Origin: Nanobdellota archaeon
Lineage (GTDB): Archaea; Nanobdellota; Nanobdellia; Woesearchaeales; JBHPFW01
DNA: 64,000 nt
Assembly (NCBI GenBank): GCA_042571645.1
Contig: JBHPFW010000005.1
Coordinates: forward strand, 1,536 to 65,535
Direction of reading: 5' to 3'
The translations under genes were made by a program, and so were the position numbers. Shown piece after piece: positions 10,012 to 56,577 of the stretch. Under the pieces are notes generated by a model. It worked only from the letters and a program-made list of their open reading frames with translations. It ran no database searches and had not been told where the DNA came from. How positions within the stretch are numbered: the first letter of the stretch is position 1; each line of letters starts with the position of its first letter.

Positions 10012-12177
10012 ATGTGCGGTATAATAGGTATATTTGGACAAGAATCTGCAAGCAAATATGCAGCTGAAGGCCTGAAAATCATTGAAAACAGAGGAAAAGA
10101 CAGCTTCGGAGTATTTGACGGAAAAAAGGTTTTCTTTGAAAAACAACTAAATCAGCTGAATAATAAAATAAAAAACAACACCTCAAATAACTGTCTTGCA
10201 CACAATCTTCATTCAATTGTTAATTTTGTTCCACAACCAATTAAAGGAAAACAAGGCATACTCGCAGCTAACTGTGAAATATATAATTGGAAAGAACTTA
10301 ATGAAAAATACAAACTTAAAGCAAAGAATGATTCTGAACTTCTACTAAACTTAATTGAAACAAAAGGAATTAAAAAAATTAAGGAAATTTTAAAAGAAAT
10401 TAGGGGTGTTTATTCTTTTGCTTATTGGACAAATAATGAAATAATTATTGCCAGAGACATAATCGGTGTAAAACCATTATGGTACTTTAATGATAAAAAT
10501 ACATTTGCATTCTCATCAGAAAGAAAAGTATTAGTTAATAATAATTTTATTAAAAATGACGATATTGAGGAATTAAATCCCAGAACAATTCTAATTTATA
10601 ACATTAAAACCAAAACTCTCAAAAAAATAAAAAGAAATTTCTTCAAAACAACTCCTCAAATAAAAAAAACCAAAGAAAAAATAAAAGCGGAACTAAAAAA
10701 AGAAATAATTGAAGCAATAAAGATAAGAATCCCGGAAAAACAGAAATTTGGCATACTCTTCTCAGGCGGCATAGACTCCACAACTATTGCCCAAATCTCA
10801 AAAAACCTGGACAAAAATTTCACCTGCTATAGTGCTGTTCTGGAAGAACCTGGAATGGAACCAGCTAAGGATTATATTGCTGCACAGAAAGTTGCCAAAA
10901 AACTTGGTTTTAAGTTAAAAGTTAAGAAAATCAAGCTGAAAGATGTAGAAAGATACCTAAAGAAAATTGTTCCACTAATCGAAGACAATAATGTTGTCAA
11001 AGTTGGTGTTGCTTTAACTTTCTATGTTGCCTGTGAATTAGCTAAAAAAGACAATATCAAAGTAATTTTCTCTGGCTTGGGTGCAGAAGAGTTATTTGCA
11101 GGCTACCAGCGCCATGAAAACAGCACAGATATCAACAAGGAATGCCTTAAAGGATTTATTGAAATCTACGAGAGAGACACTTACAGGGATGATGTTATTA
11201 CTATGAATAATAACCTAGAACTCCGAGTGCCGTTTATGGATAAAAATCTGATAGACCATTGCCTCAAGATCCCATCAGAACTAAAGCTAAAAAAAGAAAG
11301 GGGGGATTGGAGAAATAAAATTATTCTAAGAGAAATAGCTAAAGATCTTGGAATTCCAGAAGAATTTGCAGAACGCAAGAAAGTAGCTGCGCAATACGGC
11401 AGCAAATTCGACAGAGCAATACAGAAACTTGCTAAAAAACAACACCAAAAGAAATCAGAATATCTCAAACAATTCTACAATAAAGGAAATGTTCCTTTAG
11501 GAGTACTATTCTCAGGAGGAAAGGATTCTGTTTATGCAATGCATACAATGATTAAGCAGAATTACGATATTAAATGCCTAATAACAATGAAAAGCATTAA
11601 TCCAGATTCCTATATGTTCCATACTCCAAATATCAATCTTGCTGAACTCCAAGCAAAAGCAATGGACTTACCGATTATTGAGCAATCTACTCACGGCAGA
11701 AAAGAAGAAGAACTTAAAGACATGGAAAAAGCCATAAAAAAGGCTATGAAAGAATATCAAATTAAAGGAATTGTTACAGGAGCATTATATTCCAATTATC
11801 AACGTGAACGTGTCCAGAAAATCTGTGATAAACTTGGCCTAAAAACATTCTCTCCATTATGGCATATTGATCAAGAACTTGAGATGAGGAGTTTAGTCAA
11901 ACAAGGCTTTGAAGTTATTATTAGCTCTATTGCAGCAGATGGTTTAAGCAAAGAAGATCTAGGCAAAACCATAGACAACAAATTCATTGACAGAATAGTC
12001 AAACTAAACAAAAAGAACCAAATAAATATTGCAGGAGAAGGTGGAGAGTTTGAGACTTTAGTACTAAATTGTCCTCTATTCAATAAAAAGATAAAAACAG
12101 AAAAAGCACAAATTGTCATGGAAAACCAATGCACAGGCAGATATATCATCAAAAAAGCCTCCTTAATGAATAAGTAA
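10012..12177 (+). CDS. fusion of glutamine-dependent asparagine synthetase B-like domain and diphthine--ammonia ligase (Dph6)
   Basis: MCGIIG Ntn start, NCEIYN, SGGIDS and SGLGAEELFAGY; then a second PP-loop SGGKDS, SYMFH and GEGGEFET. Confidence 0.88.
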   Translation: MCGIIGIFGQESASKYAAEGLKIIENRGKDSFGVFDGKKVFFEKQLNQLNNKIKNNTSNNCLAHNLHSIVNFVPQPIKGKQGILAANCEIYNWKELNEKYKLKAKNDSELLLNLIETKGIKKIKEILKEIRGVYSFAYWTNNEIIIARDIIGVKPLWYFNDKNTFAFSSERKVLVNNNFIKNDDIEELNPRTILIYNIKTKTLKKIKRNFFKTTPQIKKTKEKIKAELKKEIIEAIKIRIPEKQKFGILFSGGIDSTTIAQISKNLDKNFTCYSAVLEEPGMEPAKDYIAAQKVAKKLGFKLKVKKIKLKDVERYLKKIVPLIEDNNVVKVGVALTFYVACELAKKDNIKVIFSGLGAEELFAGYQRHENSTDINKECLKGFIEIYERDTYRDDVITMNNNLELRVPFMDKNLIDHCLKIPSELKLKKERGDWRNKIILREIAKDLGIPEEFAERKKVAAQYGSKFDRAIQKLAKKQHQKKSEYLKQFYNKGNVPLGVLFSGGKDSVYAMHTMIKQNYDIKCLITMKSINPDSYMFHTPNINLAELQAKAMDLPIIEQSTHGRKEEELKDMEKAIKKAMKEYQIKGIVTGALYSNYQRERVQKICDKLGLKTFSPLWHIDQELEMRSLVKQGFEVIISSIAADGLSKEDLGKTIDNKFIDRIVKLNKKNQINIAGEGGEFETLVLNCPLFNKKIKTEKAQIVMENQCTGRYIIKKASLMNK

Positions 12178-13900: not shown

Positions 13901-14284
13901 ATGTTGAAAGAAATTAGAAAAGGTTTGGTTTTGAGTGTTGGTCTGACAGCTCTTGTTACAAAGAGAGTTTCAAGAGAATTGGATAAAGCCCTCAAAAATA
14001 AACACATAACAAAGAAAAAAGCAAAAGAAATAGCTACTAAGGTTGCTAAACTTGCAATGAAAGAAGGCAAACGAGTAGAGATGACAGTAAAAAAAGAGCT
14101 TATCAGAGAACTTGAAAAATCTATGCCTAAAAAAACAGCAACAAAAAAGAAGAAAGTTACAAAGAAAAAGAAAACCACTAGAAAAAAGGCAGCTAAGAAA
14201 AAGGCGGGGAAAAAAGTTAAGAAGAAAAGAACTGTCAAAAGAAGAAAAAAGAAAACCACAAAAAAGAAACGAAAAAAGAGGTAA
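13901..14284 (+). CDS. phasin-like protein with histone H1-like Lys-rich tail
   Basis: N-terminal GLVLSVGLTAL...LKNKHITKKKAKEI helix pattern, then a KKKT/KKAA-rich tail; GAGGTG SD; follows the UbiB-family gene. Confidence 0.6.
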   Translation: MLKEIRKGLVLSVGLTALVTKRVSRELDKALKNKHITKKKAKEIATKVAKLAMKEGKRVEMTVKKELIRELEKSMPKKTATKKKKVTKKKKTTRKKAAKKKAGKKVKKKRTVKRRKKKTTKKKRKKR

Positions 14285-15318: not shown

Positions 15319-17091
15319 ATGCAAGCAGAACTAAAAAAAGAACCAAAACCCGAATTTATTGAGAAAGATCCTGAAAAACTCAAGCTTAAACCAAATCTTG
15401 AGGATTATGATTATATGAACCATATTTTTTGCTGGGATGATGCTAAAAATGAGATTGAATTCTTTGAGGATGGCAAATTAAATATTGCTCATAACTCTCT
15501 TGATAGGCATAATACTCCTGAAAAAAAGAATAAAACTGCTTTAATATGGGAAGATGATGACGGAAATATAGAAAAATACACTTATGAAGATCTTGTCAAG
15601 GAAACAAATAAGTTTGCTAATGTCCTGAAAAAACATGGAGTAAAAAAAGGCGACAGGATTTTTATTTTCATGCCAAGAATTCCTGCTTTATACATAAGTT
15701 TCTTGGGAACATTAAAAACAGGTGCTATTGCTGGAACATTATTTGCAGCATTTGGCCATGATGCTTTGCTTGACAGATTAAGTGATAGCTCAGCTAAATT
15801 TGTTGTTACGCATTCTACACTAAAGGACAGAATCTACAGTGTAAAAGATGACTTACCTAATCTGAAAAAAATAATAATTACAGACGCCCCTACAGAAAAT
15901 GATTTTGAGATTGACTATAAAAAAGAAATGAAAAAAGCAAGTGATGAGTATGAAGTAGAACACATGGATCCTGAAGATGAAGCTTTCATGCTCTATACTT
16001 CTGGAACAACTGGTAAACCAAAAGGTGTTGTTCACAGACATTTAGCTGTTGCTCAAGAACATTTAACTGCTAAATGGGTTCTTGATATTCATGAAGAAGA
16101 TATGTACTGGTGTACTGCTGATCCTGGATGGGTTACTGGGATTGCATATGGCATTATTGGGCCTTTATCTAATTATACAACAATGCTTGTTCACGGAGGA
16201 AGATTTAGTGCAGAGAGATGGTATGAACTCATTCAAAAATATAAAGTTACAATTTGGTACACTGCTCCTACTGCTGTAAGACTTCTTATGAAAAATCCAG
16301 ATATTCTAAAGAAATATGATTTATCCAGTTTAAGATATGCTTGCAGTGTTGGTGAACCATTAAATCCTGAAGCAGTCAGGTGGGGTAATGAAAAACTTGG
16401 TTTGCCATTCCATGACAATTACTGGCAGACCGAAACAGGCAGTATTGTTATTGCAAATTATCCTTCTATGCCAATTAAGGTTGGTTACATGGGTAAACCT
16501 TTCCCAGGAATTGTTGCTGGGATAATCGACGAAGAGGGCAATGAATTACCAGATGGCGAAGAGGGGAATTTAGCATTAAAGCCTTGTAACACAGATAAAG
16601 ATTACTGGCCTTCACAAATGTTGGAAATCTGGCATAATGAAGCAAAGTTCGAGAGCTATTTCAACAAAGGATGGTATTTAACTGGAGATAAAGCTAAAAA
16701 AGATGCAGACGGCTATATTTTATTTGTCGGCAGAGCAGATGATGTAATAAAAACTGCAGGCCATAGAGTTGGTCCGTATGAAGTTGAATCTGCATTAATT
16801 GAACATCCTTCTATTGCAGAAGCGGGAGTGATTGGAAAACCAGATGAAACTTACGGCGAGATAATCAAAGCATTTGTTGTTTTAAGACCTGGAGCAAAAA
16901 AAGCAGATGTAACTATGGAGAATGTTAAACATTTCATGAAAGACAAACTTGCAGGTCATGCTTATCCAAAAGAAGTTGAAGTTGTTAAATCTCTTCCAAA
17001 AACTAGATCTGGTAAAATAATGAGGCGTATGTTAAAAGCTAAAGAACTTGGCCAAGATTTAGGAGATACTAGTACACTTGAGAAGGATTGA
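15319..17091 (+). CDS. acsA: AMP-forming acetyl-CoA synthetase
   Basis: LYTSGTTGKPKG, SVGEPLN, YWQTETG, GRADDVIK and LPKTRSGKIMRR motifs. Confidence 0.92.
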   Translation: MQAELKKEPKPEFIEKDPEKLKLKPNLEDYDYMNHIFCWDDAKNEIEFFEDGKLNIAHNSLDRHNTPEKKNKTALIWEDDDGNIEKYTYEDLVKETNKFANVLKKHGVKKGDRIFIFMPRIPALYISFLGTLKTGAIAGTLFAAFGHDALLDRLSDSSAKFVVTHSTLKDRIYSVKDDLPNLKKIIITDAPTENDFEIDYKKEMKKASDEYEVEHMDPEDEAFMLYTSGTTGKPKGVVHRHLAVAQEHLTAKWVLDIHEEDMYWCTADPGWVTGIAYGIIGPLSNYTTMLVHGGRFSAERWYELIQKYKVTIWYTAPTAVRLLMKNPDILKKYDLSSLRYACSVGEPLNPEAVRWGNEKLGLPFHDNYWQTETGSIVIANYPSMPIKVGYMGKPFPGIVAGIIDEEGNELPDGEEGNLALKPCNTDKDYWPSQMLEIWHNEAKFESYFNKGWYLTGDKAKKDADGYILFVGRADDVIKTAGHRVGPYEVESALIEHPSIAEAGVIGKPDETYGEIIKAFVVLRPGAKKADVTMENVKHFMKDKLAGHAYPKEVEVVKSLPKTRSGKIMRRMLKAKELGQDLGDTSTLEKD

Positions 17092-17092
17092 T

Positions 17093-17977
17093 TCAGTCTC
17101 TAATAAACCCCAACTTCCCTAAAGTCCCAAGAATCACATTAAGTGTTTTCTCTTCTTTATCTTTTTCTGGCAGATAATTACTAATACTCACAGCTATAAT
17201 ATCAAAATTATCTTTTAAAAATTCAGCTATACCATATAATTCTTTTTTATATAATCCGCCGGGTTCTGGGTATAATGTTGCGCCACTTTGGCTAGGATCC
17301 ACTACATCCTGATCAAAATGCAGATATAATTGACGGATACCCTTTTCTTTAAACTTATTTTTTATTTCAGACAAAATAGCATCATATCTTTCTCTTATTT
17401 CCTGTGGAGAATAAGTTGTTATTTGTTTTTCTCTAATTAAATCCATTTCGCCTGGATCTAGGTCCCTTGTTCCAATCAAAACAAGATTTTCCTCATTTAC
17501 TGCAGGTTCATTATTATTTAATGCTAAGATTTCCGGATGACCATAGCCTAAAACATGAGCAAGCCCCATACCATAGAAACAGCCGCTAGGGCTAGTTTCT
17601 GGAGTATTTAGGTCTCCATGAGAATCAAAATATATTATGCCAAATGGTTCGTCTATTGCAGAATAAATCCCATAACTTATTCCAGCTACAGCAGAATCAT
17701 CTCCATGAAGAATTAGTGGTGTTTTTCCGCTTCTCAATACCTCTTTTACATTCTGTTTCAAATCTGCACAAATCTTTTTTACCTGCGGTAGGTTCTTGGC
17801 TTTTTCATACATTCCAGTTTTATGGACTGGTTTAAGTTTTGGCACAGTAATTTCTATAATGTTTTCAATTAAAGGAGGATATTTTTCTTTCAAAGCTGAT
17901 ATCATCTTAATAGGGCCTTTATCTGTTCCTTTTGTAGGAGCTCCAAAATCATATGGAACTTTAATTATTTGATACAT
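17093..17977 (-). CDS. arginase/ureohydrolase-family protein with atypical active site
   Basis: DSHGDLNTPETSPSG and HFDQDVVDP present; GGDH is HGDD, the catalytic His is Tyr, and the E-x-N-P motif reads NYLP. Confidence 0.85.
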   Translation of the reverse strand: MYQIIKVPYDFGAPTKGTDKGPIKMISALKEKYPPLIENIIEITVPKLKPVHKTGMYEKAKNLPQVKKICADLKQNVKEVLRSGKTPLILHGDDSAVAGISYGIYSAIDEPFGIIYFDSHGDLNTPETSPSGCFYGMGLAHVLGYGHPEILALNNNEPAVNEENLVLIGTRDLDPGEMDLIREKQITTYSPQEIRERYDAILSEIKNKFKEKGIRQLYLHFDQDVVDPSQSGATLYPEPGGLYKKELYGIAEFLKDNFDIIAVSISNYLPEKDKEEKTLNVILGTLGKLGFIRD

Positions 17978-19119
17978 TTTTGATCAGAATAATGTGGTTT
18001 GTAAGTCGGCTCTCTGTGAGGCAAATCTTTTAATCTTTCATATGACGGCAGGATTTCAGTAACTGTTCTTTTGAAAATTGGTGTTGAGATTGCCCATTTT
18101 TCTATCCTTTCTAATTGAGATGTATTCCAACATAATTTTTTAGCCCAATTAAAAAACTCTCTCCTATAAGCATGATATAAGGAACTAATTTTCAGATAAG
18201 ATTCAACTGCTTCATTGCTATCCTGAACAAAATCAATAATTGGTAAGCTTCCTTTAACAACTTCAACAAAACATTGAAGGAAAAATCTTTTTAGAAATTC
18301 TTCATCTGGTTTTTCAGGAATTTCAACAATTCTAAATGTATCAAAATCACACAAATATAACTCAGAAGTATCGCCATTTGCAAACTCTATAACATCATTG
18401 CCAATATTGCTGTTTAATAAATCTCTAAATCCTCCATTAAAATTCATAGTAACAAGCAATAACGCTTTTTTATAGATATACCGAGCAACATTAATTCTGT
18501 CTAAATTAACTTCTGCTCCGAGATGGCATCTTAATCCTATTGTTTTTCTTGAAGCTTCTTGGATTATTAGTTTGTGTGTATCTATTTCTTTAAAATCAAA
18601 GAATGATTCTATTCTTGATTCACAAACTGTATGCTCAACAAGAGTACAGCCATTATGATTGGAATAAACACAAATCGGTCTTATATTTGTTTTTAAACCA
18701 TGTTTAATAAAAAAAGCATAACCTAAAATTTCTCTCATTACTTGTTCCTTAGTTAAAATCCCATAAGGAATTGTCTTTATATCAACATGCTCTTTGCCAA
18801 AAAAAAAGCTCTCGCTTGGGAATGTTTTGGAGTTATTTGCCGGATTGCATCCTTTGAACTTAATATTTTTTTCTGGCCAATAAGCAGATCTTTCTCCATG
18901 CCTTTCAACCATTATTGTTTTGCTTTTTCTTTTTTTCAACCAATCTGCTCTTGTTCTTGGTATTTTTAAAAAATTGGGAACATCTTTTTCTTCTGGTAAT
19001 AATGCATACTTAAGAATTTTTTTTTCCTTATCATTCAAATTGGTTTTATCAATATATTTTCTAACAAATTCAGCTGCTGAAATAACTTTCCCATTGAATT
19101 CAAATAATTCTATTCCCAT
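17965..19119 (-). CDS. hypothetical protein, probable SelO-like/protein-kinase-fold nucleotide-binding enzyme
   Basis: Ordered motifs HGERS, KFKG, G.L....RE, GF....SNIGN and LCDFD parallel SelO's GDGR, LKG, RE, HG..NTDN and IDYG. Confidence 0.5.
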   Translation of the reverse strand: MGIELFEFNGKVISAAEFVRKYIDKTNLNDKEKKILKYALLPEEKDVPNFLKIPRTRADWLKKRKSKTIMVERHGERSAYWPEKNIKFKGCNPANNSKTFPSESFFFGKEHVDIKTIPYGILTKEQVMREILGYAFFIKHGLKTNIRPICVYSNHNGCTLVEHTVCESRIESFFDFKEIDTHKLIIQEASRKTIGLRCHLGAEVNLDRINVARYIYKKALLLVTMNFNGGFRDLLNSNIGNDVIEFANGDTSELYLCDFDTFRIVEIPEKPDEEFLKRFFLQCFVEVVKGSLPIIDFVQDSNEAVESYLKISSLYHAYRREFFNWAKKLCWNTSQLERIEKWAISTPIFKRTVTEILPSYERLKDLPHREPTYKPHYSDQKCIK

Positions 19120-19122
19120 GAT

Positions 19123-20928
19123 TCACCTTAAATGCTCGAAAAACTTCTTCAGGCTTAAATCTGAGCGAGTAATTAATTTTAAATCAAATTCTCCTTTTCT
19201 CACAGCCAAATAATCCCCCATAGCAAGAACATCAATTTCAGAATTAAGAAAAGTGTCAAGAGCCTGACTTGGACTCTCAACTATGGGTGAGTTTATATTA
19301 AATGAAGTATTAACAAGAATCGGCACGCCTGTTATCTCATGGAAAGATTTTATTAGATTATAATATCTTTCATTAGTATCTTTGCTTACTGTTTGTATCC
19401 TTGCAGTATCATCTACATGAGTTATAGCTGGAACTTGTCCAATTTTCTCTGGCCTGAGTTTATAAGCAAATAACATGAAGTCGTCGGAATCAGAACCAGT
19501 TGGTCTATAAAACCATTTGTCTACTTCTTCTTTTAAGATGCTTGGAGCTAACGGCCTGAAATGTTCTCTGCCTTTGACGTCTATACTTACTTTTTTATGC
19601 ATAGAACTATTTCTTGGATCAGCTAGTATACTTCTATTGCCTAAGGCTCTCGGCCCAAGTTCCATTCTTCCCTGAAACCAGCCAATTACTAATCCATTTG
19701 CGAGAAAATTTGCAGTTAATTTTTCAATTTTATCTGTTTTTATGTATTCAATTTTTGTATTTTTCTTAAGTGTATTTTCAATCTCTTCATTGGAATACTC
19801 TGTACCAAGATAAGCACTCATCGCACTAGTTTTCCTCTTATTATCAAGAATATGATGCCAAATATAAAACGCCGCACCCAAAGCAGTCCCCATATCATTT
19901 GCAGCTGGCTGAACAAATATTCTTTCAAAGGGTCCATGTTCTAAAAGATGAGTGTTTGATAAGCAATTTAAGCTTACTCCTCCCGCTTTGCATAAATTCT
20001 TAGAACCTGTTTGCGTGTATAAGTACTTAACTAAAGATAATGTAACCTCATTTGTAATTTTTTGCAATGCCGCTGCAAAATCCATATGGCGTTGTTCTAC
20101 TGATTCGTCAGAATCTCTTGATTTTCCAAATAATTTTTCATATTTAGAATGCGAATTGTATCTAAACTGAAGTTTAACACCATCAACCTTAAAATTTCCG
20201 TTGTTATCCCACGTAACAAATTCCTTGAATTCCTTGTAGAATCTTTCTGGATCGCCGTAAGATGCAAGAGCCATTACTTTGCCTGCACCATACTCACCCA
20301 TACCGTTAACTAATAATCCAAGATATCTTGAAGCTTTTGTCCAAAGAAAACCAATTGAGTTTGGATAATTTATTTCTTTTATTACTTTAATCTTATTTCC
20401 TTTTCCATAAGCAAGCATTGTACTGGCAAACTCACCTATGCCATCTGTTGTCAAGATAGCTGCGTTTTTATAAGGAGCTGCAAAATAAGCACTTGCAGCA
20501 TGAGATAAATGATGTGGAATCCAAATAAATTTTCCTTTAACATCTGTTTTATACTTTTTATTCAGTAATTTAGGTATAGTCATTAAAAGATTATAGAATT
20601 TTTCTTCACCTTCTTTACTTCCCCAATCTCCTGGATCAACCTCTTTGTCCACTCCGATATTTCTCTTTAATCTTTCCTCTGGCAAAAAAGAAAACCCTAT
20701 ATGGCTCACATCACCTATTGTTATACCAGCAGACTTTAAGCAATAATTAATAGAAGAATATGGAAGTTCATGGGGATTGTAAATCAAGGCAGGTTTTCCA
20801 TGCCTCTGTCTACTAAATCTTTCTTCTTCTACTGCAGCGATTATTTTCCCATCTTTCAGCAGACATGCTGCTGGCTCATGATATGCTGAATTTATACCCA
20901 ACACAAATACTGGTTTCTTATAATCCAT
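19123..20928 (-). CDS. carbamoyltransferase (NodU/CmcH/TobZ family)
   Basis: AAVEEERFSR, HHLSHAAS, DGIGE, GKVMAL, GGVSLN, GPRALGNRSIL, FRPLAP and NTSFN motifs; GGAGG SD before the ATG at 20928. Confidence 0.95.
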   Translation of the reverse strand: MDYKKPVFVLGINSAYHEPAACLLKDGKIIAAVEEERFSRQRHGKPALIYNPHELPYSSINYCLKSAGITIGDVSHIGFSFLPEERLKRNIGVDKEVDPGDWGSKEGEEKFYNLLMTIPKLLNKKYKTDVKGKFIWIPHHLSHAASAYFAAPYKNAAILTTDGIGEFASTMLAYGKGNKIKVIKEINYPNSIGFLWTKASRYLGLLVNGMGEYGAGKVMALASYGDPERFYKEFKEFVTWDNNGNFKVDGVKLQFRYNSHSKYEKLFGKSRDSDESVEQRHMDFAAALQKITNEVTLSLVKYLYTQTGSKNLCKAGGVSLNCLSNTHLLEHGPFERIFVQPAANDMGTALGAAFYIWHHILDNKRKTSAMSAYLGTEYSNEEIENTLKKNTKIEYIKTDKIEKLTANFLANGLVIGWFQGRMELGPRALGNRSILADPRNSSMHKKVSIDVKGREHFRPLAPSILKEEVDKWFYRPTGSDSDDFMLFAYKLRPEKIGQVPAITHVDDTARIQTVSKDTNERYYNLIKSFHEITGVPILVNTSFNINSPIVESPSQALDTFLNSEIDVLAMGDYLAVRKGEFDLKLITRSDLSLKKFFEHLR

Positions 20929-20990
20929 TAATATTCCCTCCAACCTTATTTTATCACGACTTAGTGGAGTTATGAGCCCTTATTAACATT

Positions 20991-21012
20991 TATTCTCCTT
21001 TTTTGGAGAATA
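20991..21012. promoter_or_regulatory. 8-6-8 inverted repeat, candidate TrmB-family operator
   Basis: TATTCTCC-tttttt-GGAGAATA directly abutting TTTATATA (21013-21020) in the divergent promoter region. Confidence 0.5.
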
Positions 21013-21042
21013 TTTATATAGAAGCTCTGCTTTACCAGAATT

Positions 21043-21789
21043 ATGGCATTAGACACATCCATACTACAAGAAATAGGACTTACAAATGCCCAGATAAGGG
21101 TATATTTGGCACTAATAGAGCTTGGGCAAACAACTTCAGGTCCAATTATAAAGAAATCAGAGCTTCAGAACTCAGTAGTATATAATGCCCTTAATCAACT
21201 AATGGAAATTGGCTTAGTAAGCTTTGTGATAAAAGGCAAAAGAAAACATTTCCATGCAATAGATCCAAAAGCACTATTAAAATTAATTGATGACAGGAAA
21301 GAGAAGCTTGAAGCATTAGTTCCAGAATTAGAAGCAAAACATGAACTTTCAAGAACAAAACAAGAAGCTCAAGTATTTGTTGGGTGGAAAGGATTACAGA
21401 CAGCATTAAATATTGCCATTGATTCTGTCCCTATGCGAGGCGAATATATTGGTTTTCCTGCTGGATATGAAGAACAATATACAGAAGAAACCAAAAAATT
21501 CTTCAGAGAAATCCAAAAAAAGCGTGCACTAAAAAGATTAGATGTGAAATTTATTGCTAATGAATCTGCAAGAGACCAAGTTAGCACATATAGATATTAT
21601 GAAAAATTCAGCATTCCTAAATATAAATTTGTTCCGGGCTTTGCTCCTGTTGGAGTTCTTATCTTCGGCGATAGTATAATGAACATCGCATTCGAAGAAC
21701 AACCTCTAGCAGTAATAATTACATCAAAACAAATGGCAGAATCATATAGAAGATTTTTCTATGCATTATGGGAAGTTGCTAAGAAATAA
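21043..21789 (+). CDS. TrmB-family transcriptional regulator
   Basis: LQEIGLT..QIRVYLALIELG wHTH, VYNAL..L.E.GLV, and a C-terminal effector domain. Confidence 0.88.
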   Translation: MALDTSILQEIGLTNAQIRVYLALIELGQTTSGPIIKKSELQNSVVYNALNQLMEIGLVSFVIKGKRKHFHAIDPKALLKLIDDRKEKLEALVPELEAKHELSRTKQEAQVFVGWKGLQTALNIAIDSVPMRGEYIGFPAGYEEQYTEETKKFFREIQKKRALKRLDVKFIANESARDQVSTYRYYEKFSIPKYKFVPGFAPVGVLIFGDSIMNIAFEEQPLAVIITSKQMAESYRRFFYALWEVAKK

Positions 21790-28205: not shown

Positions 28206-29795
28206 TCAGAGAATCTTAAAATCCACACAAATTCTAAAAACTCTTGGAGAAAACTGCCCGCACTTCACTAGATCAAGAATTTTATATTTCACATTATTCC
28301 TCTTGCAAGCTTTTTTTACTTTTTCCTTGGCAAGATTGAATTCGTCTTCTGCTAAGAAATCATAGAAATGTATTATTGTACCTTTTTTTGCAGCTAATAA
28401 AGCTGTATCAAGAAAATCCTCTGCTGATTTTGGTAGGGGCATTAGTATTCTGTCAAACTTCTTTATATTATGTTCAACTTTGAAATAACTCTTAATCATT
28501 TCTTTTGCTTTTTTCTCATCCTTGTTTCTAACTTCAACAACACCTAAATTAACATAAGGCAAAATCTTTGAGAAATCTATAGAACCTTTACCAATTTCAC
28601 AAGTATGAGCTTTATTATTATGATCGGCAATATGAAAATAAGTATTGAAATTCTTTCTTATTTCTTTAATATGGTCTTCAATTTTATTATTGTTCTTATA
28701 CAATATGAATAAATGAGCAGTATCAATACAAATGTTCTTAATTCCCGCTTTTTTGCCTATTCTGACTATGTCTTCTGTTCTTGAAAAAAGACCGTCAATA
28801 ACATTCTCAAAATAAAAATAGTCATAATACTTACTTAATTTCATAATATTCTCAACTAAGATATCTTCATAATTCTTTGAATCGGAATCAGAGGCGGGAT
28901 GCACAATAGCTTTAATATGATATTGTTTGCATAAAGACCCCAAAATATTAAACATTCTAAGCTCTTCAGCTATATTCTCTTTAGCAAGATTATATTTTTC
29001 TCCATTCTTTTTATGAAATGGCATGTGAAGAACAACTTGTATTCCTTTAGCCTGTAAATCCTGAATTGCATTTTCTAACTTATCAATCCCCTCAAAAAGA
29101 TCATTATCAAAAAGATGTATCTCCATTATTACTGGATGATTCAATAACCTTGTTTTTAGTTGTTTTTCTGAATCAGAAGATTTTAAACCAATCAAATAAT
29201 GATATATATTAGGAACAACATCATTAACATCTCCATTAATCAGCACAACATTATGAAGTTTATTTAGTTTTAAATTCTGCATAGCATAATTATGTGCATC
29301 AGGATTTATTTCCATACCAAAAACATTCCTTGCTTCTGTATTTTTTGCAATAACACACGTAAAAGGCCCACAGCCTGAAAACATTACTAAAACATCTTCT
29401 CCTGGCTTAACTTGCTGGAATATTCTTTTTCTTTCTGTTGCGGATCTAGAAGAAAAATATGTTTTTTCTAAGTGAAGTTTGATTCTGGCATTGTTTTCTT
29501 TATGTATTGTTTCTTTTGTTCTTTTACCGACAATAATTTTGTATTTCTGCAGCCTGAATTCTCCTTTGTGCTCAGATGCTTTTTTTACAACAGTTTTTAT
29601 TTGCTTGTTAATCTTCAGTATTTCCTCTGCAATTTTCTTTTCTTTTTTTACAAGTTCATCCGGAATCTCCATTATAGCGATACTGCCCACCATATCGTAA
29701 GCAGTTCTGACTATTTCCAGTTCTTTTTTTGTGAGAATTTTGTTTTTTTCTAATGCTTCTTTTAGTTTCATTTTAACCATAACACTATGAATCAA
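28206..29795 (-). CDS. trm5: Trm5/Tyw2-family tRNA methyltransferase with inserted endonuclease IV/xylose isomerase-like TIM barrel
   Basis: YD.VG.IAI, YFSSR..TER, MFSGCGPF and EINP motifs; about 247-aa insert (HMP, HP, FEN, DTAH, HIAD, VEV); then FDRILMPLPK...IHFY. Confidence 0.85.
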   Translation of the reverse strand: MIHSVMVKMKLKEALEKNKILTKKELEIVRTAYDMVGSIAIMEIPDELVKKEKKIAEEILKINKQIKTVVKKASEHKGEFRLQKYKIIVGKRTKETIHKENNARIKLHLEKTYFSSRSATERKRIFQQVKPGEDVLVMFSGCGPFTCVIAKNTEARNVFGMEINPDAHNYAMQNLKLNKLHNVVLINGDVNDVVPNIYHYLIGLKSSDSEKQLKTRLLNHPVIMEIHLFDNDLFEGIDKLENAIQDLQAKGIQVVLHMPFHKKNGEKYNLAKENIAEELRMFNILGSLCKQYHIKAIVHPASDSDSKNYEDILVENIMKLSKYYDYFYFENVIDGLFSRTEDIVRIGKKAGIKNICIDTAHLFILYKNNNKIEDHIKEIRKNFNTYFHIADHNNKAHTCEIGKGSIDFSKILPYVNLGVVEVRNKDEKKAKEMIKSYFKVEHNIKKFDRILMPLPKSAEDFLDTALLAAKKGTIIHFYDFLAEDEFNLAKEKVKKACKRNNVKYKILDLVKCGQFSPRVFRICVDFKIL

Positions 29796-36461: not shown

Positions 36462-37031
36462 TTATTTATTCTGTTTTTCTTCCAAAACTGTTCTCAATTT
36501 CTCTATCTGATCCCAGCTCTTCTGCATCTTTTCATTAGCAACTTCAACAAGATATTTCAGGTAATCATCACTAATTAATTTCTCACTGTCAAAAACAGGT
36601 GCCTCTAAAAACTCAGAACCTGCAATTTCAACAACAATCTTTTTTCTAGTAGAAAGAATTGCTGGTCTTTTAAAGCTGTTTTGCCTTGCTAAATCAACTA
36701 AATCCTGAGCAATCTCAATACTCTGACAACCAATATGAATTATTGGGGGTTCTTGTTTGAAGATAATTTTTTCTTCTCCAGAATATTTATTCAGTGCATC
36801 CTTAAACTCATCACTATTTGCTAAATCATGTGTAACAACTAACCATTCACATAAATGTTTCTTTGCACATGCCTTCAATAAACATATTCTCCCTGAACAC
36901 GAAGACAAAGTAACATAATCATCTTTAGAATTAACTAATTCACACAAATCCTTAATCTTCTCATCAACTGATCCTTTTCTTGATTTATCTATCCTGGATA
37001 AAACATCCTGTTTTAATTGCTCAAAGCCCAT
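36462..37031 (-). CDS. taw3: tRNA wybutosine/wyosine methyltransferase Tyw3/Taw3
   Basis: D.S.KGSVD, TLSSCSGRI and EPPIIH motifs. Confidence 0.9.
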   Translation of the reverse strand: MGFEQLKQDVLSRIDKSRKGSVDEKIKDLCELVNSKDDYVTLSSCSGRICLLKACAKKHLCEWLVVTHDLANSDEFKDALNKYSGEEKIIFKQEPPIIHIGCQSIEIAQDLVDLARQNSFKRPAILSTRKKIVVEIAGSEFLEAPVFDSEKLISDDYLKYLVEVANEKMQKSWDQIEKLRTVLEEKQNK

Positions 37032-41730: not shown

Positions 41731-42870
41731 TTAATCTTTTTTTGGCTCTTCTGCGCTAACTGGTGATTCTCCTTCTGCCAATTCTTTCATTTCATCACGA
41801 GATGATTCAATATCTGAAGCTTTTAATTTTCCTTCGACAATTCCTAAAGTGCTGTAATGATCCTCTTTGACCTTTGTTGAGCTCAATTGCTTTAAAGCCT
41901 CGAAGCATGCTTTTACTAGGTTCGTCTTTGTTCTTGATTGTCCTGAAGTTTTTGACCAAACATCTTTTATTCCTGCAAGACTTAATATCTTTTGGCATTC
42001 TTTTTCTACTTTTAAACCTGTACCTTTAGGCGCAGGAATTAATGTTATGCTTACAGAACCTTCTCTTCCAGAAACCTTGAATGGAATGGATGTTGGTTCT
42101 GTAGTCTTTGATTCCCATGAGCCCGCACCCCTCCTTATTTTGATTATATTTAATTTAGCCTTTCTAATTGCCTTTTCTCTGGCAGGCACTGTCTCTTTTG
42201 ACTTTCCATAACCTATGCCAACTATACCATCTTTGTTGCCTACTGCTGCACAAGTAGCAAAACTTGGCTTGTTGCCTTCTCTAGTTTTCTTTTGTGTTTG
42301 TTTGAATATTCTTCTTGCGCCGCCTCCAAATTTACCTTTGGACTGACCGATCATCAAAAGCTCTGTTTCAATATTAGGCAAAAGAAGTTCTACAACCTCG
42401 ATTTCGAGTATCTTCTTACCAACATCCAAAATATCTTCAATATCTGTTAATTCACCTGATTTAACAAGCTTACCCATCTCTGTTTTTGGCTTCCAGACCG
42501 CAAGAATTTCTTCTGAAGATCTCTGCTGAGGTCTTTGCTGTCTTCGTTTAAAACCCTTTTCTCCTTTTGAACCTGATCTTTTTGGCTTCTCTCTTTTTTC
42601 TTCTGATTGCTTTTTTTCTGATTGCTTTTTTTCTGATTGCTTTTTTTCTGATTGCTTTTCTTCTGATTCTGCCTTATTCTCTTTGGAATCATCTAAAGCT
42701 TTGCCTGTTTCAGCTTTGCCTGTTTCTTTTTCATTATCATCTGATAATTTTTCTGCTTTTTCTGCCTCTGTTTCCTTGGCTTCCTTAACAGAACTAATGT
42801 TCTCTGCTCCTTCTACCTTTTCTGTCTCAGGCTGAACAACTTCATTTGATTCTTGTTGTGATTCTGTCAT
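41731..42870 (-). CDS. rps5: 30S ribosomal protein uS5 with long charged N-extension
   Basis: WKPKT.MG, VGN.DG.VG.G, PAPKGTG and AGI.DVW motifs. Confidence 0.96.
   Translation of the reverse strand: MTESQQESNEVVQPETEKVEGAENISSVKEAKETEAEKAEKLSDDNEKETGKAETGKALDDSKENKAESEEKQSEKKQSEKKQSEKKQSEEKREKPKRSGSKGEKGFKRRQQRPQQRSSEEILAVWKPKTEMGKLVKSGELTDIEDILDVGKKILEIEVVELLLPNIETELLMIGQSKGKFGGGARRIFKQTQKKTREGNKPSFATCAAVGNKDGIVGIGYGKSKETVPAREKAIRKAKLNIIKIRRGAGSWESKTTEPTSIPFKVSGREGSVSITLIPAPKGTGLKVEKECQKILSLAGIKDVWSKTSGQSRTKTNLVKACFEALKQLSSTKVKEDHYSTLGIVEGKLKASDIESSRDEMKELAEGESPVSAEEPKKD
42601..42668. repeat. about 4.5 x 15-bp tandem repeat encoding (K)KQSE(K) in uS5
   Basis: ttctgattgcttttt repeated at 42601, 42616, 42631 and 42646. 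Confidence 0.92.
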
Positions 42871-55113: not shown

Positions 55114-56577
55114 TCATCCCTTCCTAACAACATCCCTAAACTCCCTCTCATATTTCTTAGCCCATGAATTATAGAATCTGATTGCTCCAATTGAAGTTAA
55201 TGGTTCTGCTATTCCATAACCTTGGACATTATGACATCCACTTGAGTAAAGAGATCTCATTTGGTCTGGGGTGTTAACACCTTCTGCTATAACAGTAATT
55301 CCATACTTGCTGGCTAAATCTATTACAGCTTTGATCTCTTCTGCATACTTCCTATAATTTTTCCCGGTAATTATCGATTTGTCAAGTTTTAGTATGTCTG
55401 GCTTTAGATCCTTTAATTTAAATAAACTTGTTGCTTTTGATCCAAAATCATCTATAGATATTCCAACTCCTAGTCCTCTTAGATCATTTATAATCTTAAT
55501 AGCATTATCATCAACAACAATATCCTCATTTAATTCCAAAACAATATATTGAGGATCAACTTTGGAAAGTTCTAATGCATCTTCTACAGTCTGTACATAT
55601 TTTTCTGAAAAGAATTCTTTTTTACTAACATTTACTGAAACTGTAAAATCATTATATCCTTTATCTAGCCATTTTTTTCTTTGTTCACCTGCATGATATA
55701 ATACCCAACCACCAATGTCTAGAATTAATGACTTTCTTTCGGCAAATGGTAAGAAATCATCTGGCATGATAATTCCGCGATCAGGATGATCCCATCTTAT
55801 TAATGCTTCATATCCTTTTATTTCCCCTGAAGAAAGATCTACAATTGGTTGATATTGCAAAAAGAATTCATGCTTTCTAATTGCAATTATTAAATCTTCT
55901 TGAAGCTGATGAAGGTCTTTAACTTTTCTCTGTAAACTAGAATCATAATAAGCAACATTTTTCCCTTGCTCCCTGGCACTTAACATTGCAAGATCTGCTT
56001 GAGTCACAAGATCTTCTGGAGTGAGTTCATTGCTTTGTTGAGGATAAGTTGTTATACCAATAGTTGATAATATTTGCAACTCTATTCCTTGATATTGGAA
56101 AGGGTGTTCAAGTGCTCGTGTTATCTTTCTTACTTCTCTGTCAATATCAAATTCATTGTTAATTCCTGAATAAACTAATACAAATTCATCACCAAAAGTT
56201 CTTGCAGCAATATCTTTATCAATTACAACCCTGCTAAGTCTCTCGCCTGTTTCTCTTAAAAGTTCCTCAGCTACTGTTCTTCCATGATTCTGGATAATAT
56301 TCATAAATCCACTTATATCTAAAAGCATTACAGTAAAATCATCCTCAGCAGCTATTAAATCTTCAATATGACTGTACAATTTTGTTCTGTTTGCTAAGCC
56401 AGTTAAAGAATCCCGATAAGCAATATTTTCCAAATCATCAAGCTTCCCTGTGAGTTCATCCAGCTGTCCAAGTATATCTCCGGTATCAGTTTCTGACCCT
56501 GTTTTTCTTAGCCCAGCAAGCAACTCTTTTATCCTACCAACTAAATCAAAGTCCCTCATAGATTTTGGTAATAGCAC
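55114..56577 (-). CDS. GGDEF-EAL protein (degenerate cyclase, apparently intact EAL phosphodiesterase)
   Basis: DSLTGLANR and RTFGDEF; QPIV, EALIRW, SVNVS, LELNE, IDDFG, LKLDKS, AEGV and QGY motifs. Confidence 0.92.
   Translation of the reverse strand: MLLPKSMRDFDLVGRIKELLAGLRKTGSETDTGDILGQLDELTGKLDDLENIAYRDSLTGLANRTKLYSHIEDLIAAEDDFTVMLLDISGFMNIIQNHGRTVAEELLRETGERLSRVVIDKDIAARTFGDEFVLVYSGINNEFDIDREVRKITRALEHPFQYQGIELQILSTIGITTYPQQSNELTPEDLVTQADLAMLSAREQGKNVAYYDSSLQRKVKDLHQLQEDLIIAIRKHEFFLQYQPIVDLSSGEIKGYEALIRWDHPDRGIIMPDDFLPFAERKSLILDIGGWVLYHAGEQRKKWLDKGYNDFTVSVNVSKKEFFSEKYVQTVEDALELSKVDPQYIVLELNEDIVVDDNAIKIINDLRGLGVGISIDDFGSKATSLFKLKDLKPDILKLDKSIITGKNYRKYAEEIKAVIDLASKYGITVIAEGVNTPDQMRSLYSSGCHNVQGYGIAEPLTSIGAIRFYNSWAKKYEREFRDVVRKG

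Follow-up and report, generated by a model that had tools for sequence, protein, structure and literature searches.

We examined a window of 64,000 nucleotides, the whole stretch of DNA analyzed here, from a Nanobdellota archaeon of the Woesearchaeales (assembly GCA_042571645.1, contig JBHPFW010000005.1, positions 1,536-65,535). On the minus strand of this window three genes lie end to end: CT (19123-20943, 606 amino acids (aa)), which encodes a class III carbamoyltransferase of the TobZ/NodU/CmcH type; MID (17965-19119, 384 aa), the middle gene, whose product belongs to an unnamed family with a protein-kinase-like fold and is predicted to bind CT; and ARG (17093-17977, 294 aa), which encodes an arginase-superfamily metallohydrolase from a small divergent clade. 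A divergent control region, a spacer of 99 bp (20944-21042), separates CT from trmB (21043-21789, plus strand, 248 aa), the gene for a TrmB-family transcription regulator. A sequence-only reading of this DNA had described the three minus-strand genes as tightly coupled and facing trmB, and this description is confirmed. Three bp lie between the TGA stop of CT and the ATG of MID, the last stretch of CT contains a GGTGA motif of Shine-Dalgarno type, and the MID and ARG genes overlap by 13 bp. As detailed below, the conserved core of this arrangement is the CT-MID pair rather than the trio.

The assembly comprises 1.49 Mb and is 82% complete; genomes of relatives in the same order range from 0.6 to 2.1 Mb. 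The earlier reading considered a small biosynthetic or modification system of this kind unexpected in a metabolically reduced archaeon. The genome proves to hold two OTCace-family genes, with OTCase, ArgG and ArgH on contig C2, and a CarB that scores 1540 bits, above cut-off, on contig C22. Because CarB exceeds its cut-off, carbamoyl phosphate should be available, and we rejected the view that the genome has no source of it. Likewise, we rejected the view that the operon fills a gap in arginine synthesis, since OTCase, ArgG, ArgH and CarB are all present. No carbamate kinase above cut-off was found in this 82% complete genome. A second arginase-family gene lies elsewhere in it.

The carbamoyltransferase and its kinase-fold partner

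CT matches both Pfam domains of its family above cut-off, Carbam_trans_N over residues 14-358 (1.4e-57, 196 bits) and Carbam_trans_C over residues 411-580 (3e-66, 223 bits), in agreement with its earlier assignment as a NodU/CmcH/TobZ-type carbamoyltransferase. The protein consists of an N-terminal Kae1-like domain and a C-terminal YrdC-like domain. Its nearest solved relatives are NovN (3.8e-87), then GdmN and TobZ, the solved members spanning E values of 1e-73 to 1e-87. On the NodU equivalog NF041651 it reaches 161 bits, far from the cut-off of 1000. CT alone was matched in PHROGs, as 'Nol-like carbamoyltransferase'. Translation probably starts at the ATG at 20928 (601 aa) rather than at the TTG at 20943, because an A/T-rich box lies ~25 nt upstream of the ATG and the closest homologue has 601 aa.

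In GdmN, the YrdC-like domain adenylates carbamoyl phosphate and the Kae1-like domain transfers the group; iron is bound by H133, H137, D156 and D333, and H27 is the general base (excerpted text of PMC9633730). Residues H22, H144, H145, H148, D167 and D350 of CT are invariant across 18 homologues, and H22, H144/H148, D167 and D350 align with NovN. Because the GdmN-equivalent residues are invariant in these homologues and aligned with NovN, CT looks catalytically competent, retaining the metal-binding His/His/Asp/Asp set and the general-base His. N-carbamoylation of amino-acid side chains has a precedent, since a NodU-like enzyme carbamoylates the epsilon-amine of lysine, as reported in excerpts of a 2026 preprint (PMC13174530).

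MID has no match in Pfam, NCBIfam or the sequences of the PDB, and the profile of its family likewise finds none among PDB sequences. A word-indexed search of 5.8 billion proteins returned 40 relatives, none of them with a name beyond 'hypothetical'. When 1.84 billion representatives were searched exhaustively with the family profile, 105 of them matched at E <=0.001, and no known or named family was reached. In an alignment of 35 MID sequences, G75, R77, K89, G90, C91, R129, E130, R169, E203 and G229 are invariant, as are G230, R232, N236, S237, N238, N241, D258, D260 and E286.

AlphaFold models MID with a mean pLDDT of 91.5 and a pTM of 0.90. Foldseek with this model yields weak protein-kinase matches, and an exhaustive structural search yields a tied block of kinase-like folds: SbnC (12.5), WaaP (12.0), MTR kinase (11.3), AcsD (11.2), Bud32 (10.9), SelO (10.7) and RIO1 (10.5). 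From order and secondary structure, we assign the beta3 Lys to K89, the alphaC Glu to E130, an Asn-rich catalytic loop to R232-N241 and the DFG equivalent to D258-F-D260 (DFD). At what we infer to be the position of the HRD Asp, 29 of the 35 sequences carry Gly and 6 carry Asp. Cys91, present in all 35, neighbors the beta3 Lys in the ATP site. Because the model is kinase-like, the beta3 Lys, alphaC Glu and DFD are kept and the HRD Asp is mostly Gly, MID looks like an atypical kinase-fold ATP enzyme in which the usual catalytic Asp is missing.

The sequence-only reading had named this fold SelO-like. The kinase-like part of that name stands, and the SelO part has no specific support: several folds are tied, Pfam SelO (PF02696) gives no match to MID, and hhalign places the family profile against E. 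coli SelO at a probability of 0.8%. Only a language-model lead, to an MchC/SelO cluster with a score of 0.93, points towards SelO.

We tabulated 35 loci by tblastn, 13 from a scan of one genome per species, 20 from JGI metagenomes, the window and one relative; L007/L024, L022/L023 and L032/L033 are near-duplicate pairs. A further locus, L054, from a genome of the same order, was added after the table, giving 36. Of the 35 tabulated loci, 32 extend at all upstream of MID, and in 31 of these CT is the neighbor of MID. The single exception, L021, is a divergent MID paralogue in genome G008. In L007/L024 the gene order is MID, a radical-SAM gene, CT. These loci lie on archaeal-type contigs and in bacteria labelled Bacteroidales, Nitrospirae, Phycisphaerae, Acidobacteriota, Krumholzibacteriia, Holophagales and SAR324, a range that covers Archaea and at least six bacterial phyla. 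MID occurs in 2 of 41 relatives and in 4 of 401 genomes of the phylum, with the window's genome counted in both. One of the 105 representatives, P0059 (947 aa), naturally joins CT (residues 6-576) and MID (577-947) in a single chain.

Complex prediction for CT and MID from family alignments gave 0.76, 0.73 and 0.00 in three runs (median 0.73), and the best of three controls gave 0.00. Of 80 solved complexes, 58 attained that mark, as did 2 of 110 mismatched pairs; since the prediction used our own alignments, these counts apply only approximately. The CT-MID runs share at least 10% of contacts, and the pLDDT of the partner is at least 75. On the CT side the predicted interface comprises residues 413-418, 444-450, 461-464 and 498-512 of the YrdC-like domain, and on the MID side a loop (194-213) that holds the invariant E203, together with helices 311-328. 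The prediction supports, though it does not show, that CT and MID bind each other. Three observations make the pair the core of the locus: CT and MID are adjacent in 31 of 32 loci, they occur fused in P0059, and their predicted complex clears its controls.

Two further observations concern MID and its fusion. P0059 could instead be a read-through artefact of gene calling. On a 5.5-kb contig of genome G008 (L055, G008:C90), a divergent MID paralogue at 3468-4667 matches in two stretches at ~25% identity, and no carbamoyltransferase is found on that contig.

The altered arginase, the variable third gene and the control region

ARG matches Pfam Arginase (PF00491) at 9.5e-39, with 134 bits against a gathering score of 22. 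On the rocF equivalog TIGR01229 it reaches 165 bits, below the cut-off of 227.6, and its scores on agmatinase and formimidoylglutamase are lower still and also below their cut-offs. Twelve close relatives score 234-660 bits, one of which NCBI labels Candidatus Woesearchaeota archaeon; canonical Bacillus-type arginases follow at 158 bits or less.

We aligned 14 members of the ARG clade with 6 canonical arginases. The DxHxD and DxD motifs are retained in the clade, as are the N-T-x-E-T/S-x-S-G loop (loop A; N, S/T, S) and the L-D-x-G-E loop (loop B; D-x-G-E). The His of the GGDHS motif, present in 6/6 canonical enzymes, is Asp in 14/14 clade members (xG[DE]DS), and the clade thereby keeps five of the six binuclear-metal ligands (His, Asp, His, Asp, Asp, Asp), one His having become Asp. 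In the SGNIHGM motif, the canonical Asn is Cys in 12/14, and the His that acts as proton shuttle is Tyr or Phe in 14/14. The Glu of the EVNP motif is Asn in 14/14 (NY[LIV]P). The rewiring of the arginase noted earlier from the sequence is real and specific to this clade.

We take the Glu and the shuttle His that the clade has lost to be Glu277 and His141 in the numbering of human arginase. In that enzyme, loops A and B hold arginine by its alpha-carboxylate and alpha-amino groups, and the guanidinium is positioned by Glu277; the role of His141 is taken from the same paper (PMC9224512, in excerpt). Because the anchoring loops are kept while the guanidinium-holding Glu and the His are lost, ARG would be a metallohydrolase for an L-amino acid of about arginine length whose distal group is something other than guanidinium. 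A reversible write/erase carbamoylation, one of the earlier suggestions, is unsupported, as the alignment points to a pocket that would suit a free L-amino-acid-type substrate better than removal of the mark made by CT.

ARG follows MID in 4 of the 35 loci (the window, L002, L035 and L036) and, with L054, in 5 of 36; in all five, which are the ARG loci with an examinable neighborhood, it lies directly after MID. The trio thus recurs outside the window, whereas its absence from all other loci was what the sequence-only reading had named as grounds for its own refutation. As a unit, however, the trio of the sequence-only reading stands only in its CT-MID part, the arginase being accessory. A MID tree of 25 rows places the ARG-linked MIDs in two separate well-supported groups, one with the window, L002 and L001 and the other with L035 and L054, and the main bacterial clade comprises 14 rows, all with the radical-SAM family F2 described below. 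This tree omits one member of each near-duplicate pair (L022, L024 and L033), the paralogue L021 and every locus with a MID open reading frame (ORF) shorter than 330 aa. The ARG of L035 forms one protein with an N-methyltransferase of the PrmA/MTS/HemK type that has an NHPF motif (L035:9133-10758), and in L054 a free-standing homologous methyltransferase opens the operon (L054:11688-12422; 33% identity, E 5e-33). This methyltransferase belongs to the archaeal version of the module.

On the other side of ARG, a plus-strand gene for an acetate-CoA ligase (15319-17091; NF003313, 814 bits, above cut-off) converges on it, with one base separating the stop codons. Among the loci examined, such a ligase lies beside the module in the window only; L012 has AMP-binding nonribosomal peptide synthetase (NRPS) genes beside it instead.

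Elsewhere the third position is occupied by other enzymes. The usual one is F2, a radical-SAM family of ~320 aa with a CxxxCxxC motif, which lies after or before CT-MID in 20 of the 35 loci. In L032/L033 the gene after MID encodes a radical-SAM enzyme of the RaSEA family (260 bits; cut-off 212), and in L003 it is an Amidohydro_3 gene. Whatever its family, the third gene codes for an enzyme with known or putative C-N-cleaving activity in 27 of the 35 loci. F2 and ARG are not simple substitutes for each other, since L035 carries both. The model of F2 shows a radical-SAM barrel (pLDDT 83) whose structural matches are tied among queuine lyase (15.4), the tryptophan lyase NosL (15.3), BioB (15.1), HydG (14.7) and ThiH (14.5). 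RaSEA itself takes the lysine carrier off preQ0-lysine amidine to yield archaeosine (excerpts of PMC11298593). We did not give this name to F2, as its hhalign comparison with the RaSEA-family protein of L032 provides a weak link (probability 64%, E 6.7e-5, 136 columns).

SsuA/TauA-like (NMT1) ABC importers, with genes for a binding protein, a permease and an ATPase, flank CT-MID in 8 of the 35 loci. F7, a family of unknown function that is probably membrane-associated, occurs in 6 of the 35 by tblastn and in 5 by ORF clustering. The trio of L036 has a carbon-nitrogen hydrolase gene in its vicinity. CT-MID neighborhoods may be accessory, mobile regions, as integrase, recombinase, IS200 and PIN genes near some of the loci suggest. 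In the window's genome (82% complete), tblastn detected no copy of F2, F7 or the PrmA/MTS-like methyltransferase. Rfam gave no riboswitch match at gathering thresholds in 12 bacterial loci, and no obvious RiPP precursor peptide gene was seen in the window's operon, where no systematic search was made. PADLOC gave no match for CT, MID, ARG, TrmB or F2, and a reading of the locus as a defence system was rejected for want of such support; the ThsB-like TIR gene beside L002 is merely a neighbor. This TIR protein (PADLOC ThsB, 1.4e-36) and a conserved unknown partner lie between CT-MID and the ABC importer in both L002 (8667-11610) and L003 (3711-5574).

The regulator matches Pfam TrmB (PF01978) above cut-off through its N-terminal winged-helix domain (2.6e-13, 50 bits against 25.6), as had been recognized from the sequence. 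On the TrmB/TrmBL sugar-sensing equivalogs it reaches at best 29 bits against cut-offs of 500-650, over the N-terminus only. A divergent trmB also lies upstream of the module in L001, L031, L032/L033, L035 and L054. The spacer between CT and trmB contains a perfect 8-nt inverted repeat, TATTCTCC-N6-GGAGAATA (20991-21012), abutted by a TTTATATA box (21013-21020) that lies ~25 nt before the ATG of trmB. The equivalent spacer of L031 has the same core, TTCTCC-AAAAAA-GGAGA, though its MID is only ~35% identical, and the spacers of L001, L032, L035 and L054 carry CCCC-N3-5-GGGG palindromes instead. These palindromes are candidate TrmB operators.

The remaining gene content marks the window as archaeal: it encodes primase, FEN1, TYW2/TYW3, a tRNA-intron endonuclease and the ribosomal proteins L19e, S4e and L30/L7e. 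A plus-strand gene at 10012-12177 (721 aa) joins a GATase_7/Asn_synthase part to a diphthamide-synthase domain (Diphthami_syn_2, 9.5e-65), and its product could be a glutamine-dependent enzyme of diphthine amidation. The minus-strand gene at 28206-29795 (529 aa) combines a TYW2/Trm5-type methyltransferase with a xylose-isomerase-like TIM-barrel domain (AP_endonuc_2); TYW3 lies at 36462-37031. Beside the ribosomal-protein cluster, a minus-strand gene (55114-56577) encodes a GGDEF and EAL protein (2.1e-30 and 9.3e-63); cyclic-di-GMP enzymes are uncommon in archaea. Ribosomal protein S5 (41731-42870, minus strand) is unusually long, at 379 aa with its S5 domains at 190-333, and several ribosomal proteins of the window seem to carry extensions. 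A lysine-rich ORF of 127 aa lies at 13901-14284 (plus strand).

A possible carbamoylation pathway and its rivals

The coupling of the genes, the conservation of the pair, the fold of MID, the motifs retained and lost, and the complex prediction that passes its controls are the observations from which we start. We propose, with about even confidence, that the locus is a TrmB-controlled module of small-molecule nitrogen chemistry, in which a CT-MID complex carbamoylates its substrate and activates the product with ATP, before a third enzyme breaks a C-N bond. Our suggestions, as distinct from these observations, cover the substrate, the sequence of steps and the chemistry assigned to MID and ARG. 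The YrdC-like domain of CT would convert carbamoyl phosphate and ATP to carbamoyl-AMP, and its Kae1-like domain would pass the carbamoyl group on to a small molecule, probably amino-acid-like, at an amine or hydroxyl. MID, docked on the YrdC-like domain, may then activate the carbamoylated intermediate with ATP at one of its oxygens, that of the carbamoyl/ureido group or of a neighboring carboxylate, with formation of a new C-N bond or loss of water as the result. Such a step would be akin to that of argininosuccinate synthetase in the urea cycle or of HypE acting on the product of HypF. Finally, ARG, or at other loci a radical-SAM lyase-like enzyme, would cleave a C-N bond to release or recycle the amino-acid moiety. 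The pocket of ARG would anchor an L-alpha-amino acid, with its distal end rebuilt, for example, for a neutral ureido or carbamate group.

Several points weigh against this proposal. If ARG cleaved a carrier-linked guanidine as an arginase does, the ureido compound would form again and the preceding step would be undone, which makes the role of ARG chemically uncertain. The tied fold matches of MID cannot separate phosphorylation, adenylylation and ATP hydrolysis alone. One of the three CT-MID complex runs scored 0.00, and the predicted interface leaves the ATP-site residues of MID away from the active sites of CT. Furthermore, the importers at 8 of 35 loci suit uptake and breakdown as well as they suit biosynthesis, and some neighbors are enzymes of an RNA- or protein-modifying type, namely the RaSEA-family protein of L032/L033 and the PrmA/MTS-like methyltransferase of L035 and L054.

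These neighbors lend themselves to another explanation, in which CT, through its Kae1-like domain, carbamoylates tRNA, rRNA or a protein in the manner of KEOPS, MID is a regulatory ATPase like Bud32 or RIO, and the arginase-like enzyme, the methyltransferase and the radical-SAM enzyme finish or edit the modification. The Kae1-like and YrdC-like domains of CT would fit this, as would the archaeosine-type radical-SAM gene after MID in L032/L033 and the N-methyltransferases with an NHPF motif in L035 and L054. We nevertheless think it rather improbable, since the MID interface is predicted on the YrdC-like and not the Kae1-like domain (CT 413-512), the fold scores of MID are tied with those of small-molecule kinases and NIS synthetases, and ARG retains the residues that anchor a free alpha-amino acid. 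Likewise, the rarity of MID (4 of 401 phylum genomes, 2 of 41 relatives) would be unusual for a modification of the translation apparatus, and ABC importers accompany 8 of 35 loci. Those importers also speak for another possibility, that a nitrogen-rich ureido, guanidino or carbamate compound from outside the cell is imported and broken down or salvaged; ARG or other hydrolases would open its C-N bond, and CT-MID would handle the carbamoyl fragment with ATP. The amidohydrolase after MID in L003 and the carbon-nitrogen hydrolase near the trio in L036 agree with it, and the patchy, mobile-looking spread, with integrase, recombinase and IS200 transposase genes nearby, is typical of accessory catabolic genes. 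TobZ-type enzymes, however, are known as ATP-consuming carbamoyl donors and not as decarbamoylases (PMC9633730, in excerpt); the operon of the window contains no transporter, no riboswitch was found among the 12 bacterial loci, and the 82% complete genome shows no carbamate kinase above cut-off that could harvest carbamoyl phosphate. We rate salvage just as improbable as modification of a macromolecule.

Cys91 invites a third comparison. Invariant in 35 of 35 sequences and set beside the beta3 Lys in the ATP site, it might be carbamoylated by CT, after which MID would dehydrate the thiocarbamate to a thiocyanate with ATP and pass the cyano group on. HypE performs such an ATP-dependent dehydration. 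The predicted binding of CT and MID agrees with this scheme, and HypF, itself a YrdC-like and Kae1-like carbamoyltransferase, loads the C-terminal Cys of HypE (PMC9633730, in excerpt). We consider it quite improbable, because Cys91 lies outside the predicted interface, buried in the nucleotide site and not on a flexible tail, no metal-centre maturation genes lie nearby, and ARG and the radical-SAM partner would be left unexplained. Still less credible, and in our view very improbable, is that the three genes are unrelated neighbors with separate housekeeping roles. Most CT-MID loci do lack ARG, and the genome has a second arginase-family gene, as such a view would expect. Against it, the CT-MID pair is conserved across domains, fused in P0059 and passes complex prediction, the ARG clade has ~12 close members, the five ARG genes that can be examined all lie directly after MID, and the MID and ARG genes overlap by 13 bp.

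To return to the proposed module of carbamoylation, ATP activation and C-N cleavage, a bolder form of it would make MID the founder of an enzyme family that turns a new ureido or carbamate group into a guanidino, amidino or cyano group, using ATP and a nitrogen donor borne by an amino acid, with the carrier removed by a radical-SAM lyase or, in this archaeon, a re-tuned arginase. We consider this form unlikely. If it is true, MID would provide a compact route to guanidine-type groups that runs parallel to the urea cycle and is independent of ArgG/ArgH. The proposed module offers a testable three-step chemistry on nitrogen-rich small molecules, found in small-genome archaea and in several bacterial phyla. 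Identification of its product would assign a function to MID, to the radical-SAM family F2 and to one misannotated clade of 'arginases'; ARG itself would be a natural case of an arginase active site rebuilt for a non-guanidinium substrate.

Comparison with known systems

CT and ARG are members of known superfamilies. MID is an unannotated family, and its obligate pairing with CT is new. The sequence-only reading knew of no described pathway with this trio, and our results agree: in the main texts of openly available papers we found no published carbamoyltransferase with a kinase-fold partner and no description of the trio. CT shares its two-domain build, metal ligands and general-base His with TobZ, GdmN, NovN, NodU and CmcH, and is about as long as TobZ; it falls far under the NodU equivalog cut-off. 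TobZ/NodU-type enzymes have been treated as self-sufficient tailoring enzymes, whereas CT is tied to a rare kinase-fold family. No described class III member is reported with an obligate kinase-fold partner, and GdmN has a C-terminal dimerisation domain instead. Among kinase-fold enzymes that adenylate or phosphorylate, such as SelO, the NIS synthetases SbnC, AcsD and IucA, WaaP and MTR kinase, the fold matches of MID are tied, and MID shows no sequence or profile similarity to them.

Two known systems combine the same kinds of domain with an ATP-using partner. HypF-HypE resembles CT-MID in that a YrdC-like and Kae1-like carbamoyltransferase works with a separate ATP-using protein that processes the carbamoyl group. 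The fold of HypE is PurM-like and its Cys is C-terminal, whereas MID has a kinase-like fold, an internal invariant Cys and no hydrogenase context. In KEOPS and t6A synthesis (Sua5/YrdC, Kae1, Bud32), the same domain families meet an atypical kinase-fold ATPase, and the Kae1-Bud32 fusion of Methanocaldococcus (PDB 3en9) parallels the CT-MID fusion P0059. Bud32, however, has no detectable sequence homology with MID; MID is predicted to contact the YrdC-like domain, and its distribution is rare, not universal.

The order of steps that we propose resembles that of the urea cycle (OTCase, argininosuccinate synthetase, arginase) and of ArcS-RaSEA, in which carbamoylation, ATP activation with addition of nitrogen, and cleavage of the carrier C-N bond would correspond. 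The enzymes involved are of other families or subfamilies, the likeness is one that we draw ourselves, and the genome already has OTCase, ArgG and ArgH. For ARG the nearest parallels are DcsB, the N-omega-hydroxy-L-arginine amidinohydrolase, and guanidine hydrolase, in which arginase folds have likewise been re-tuned to other C-N substrates. ARG matches DcsB at 1.8e-13, with Bacillus-type arginases closer at 1.8e-40, and it differs from both DcsB and guanidine hydrolase by a signature of its own, with Asp in place of the ligand His, Tyr or Phe in place of the shuttle His and Asn in place of the guanidinium Glu.

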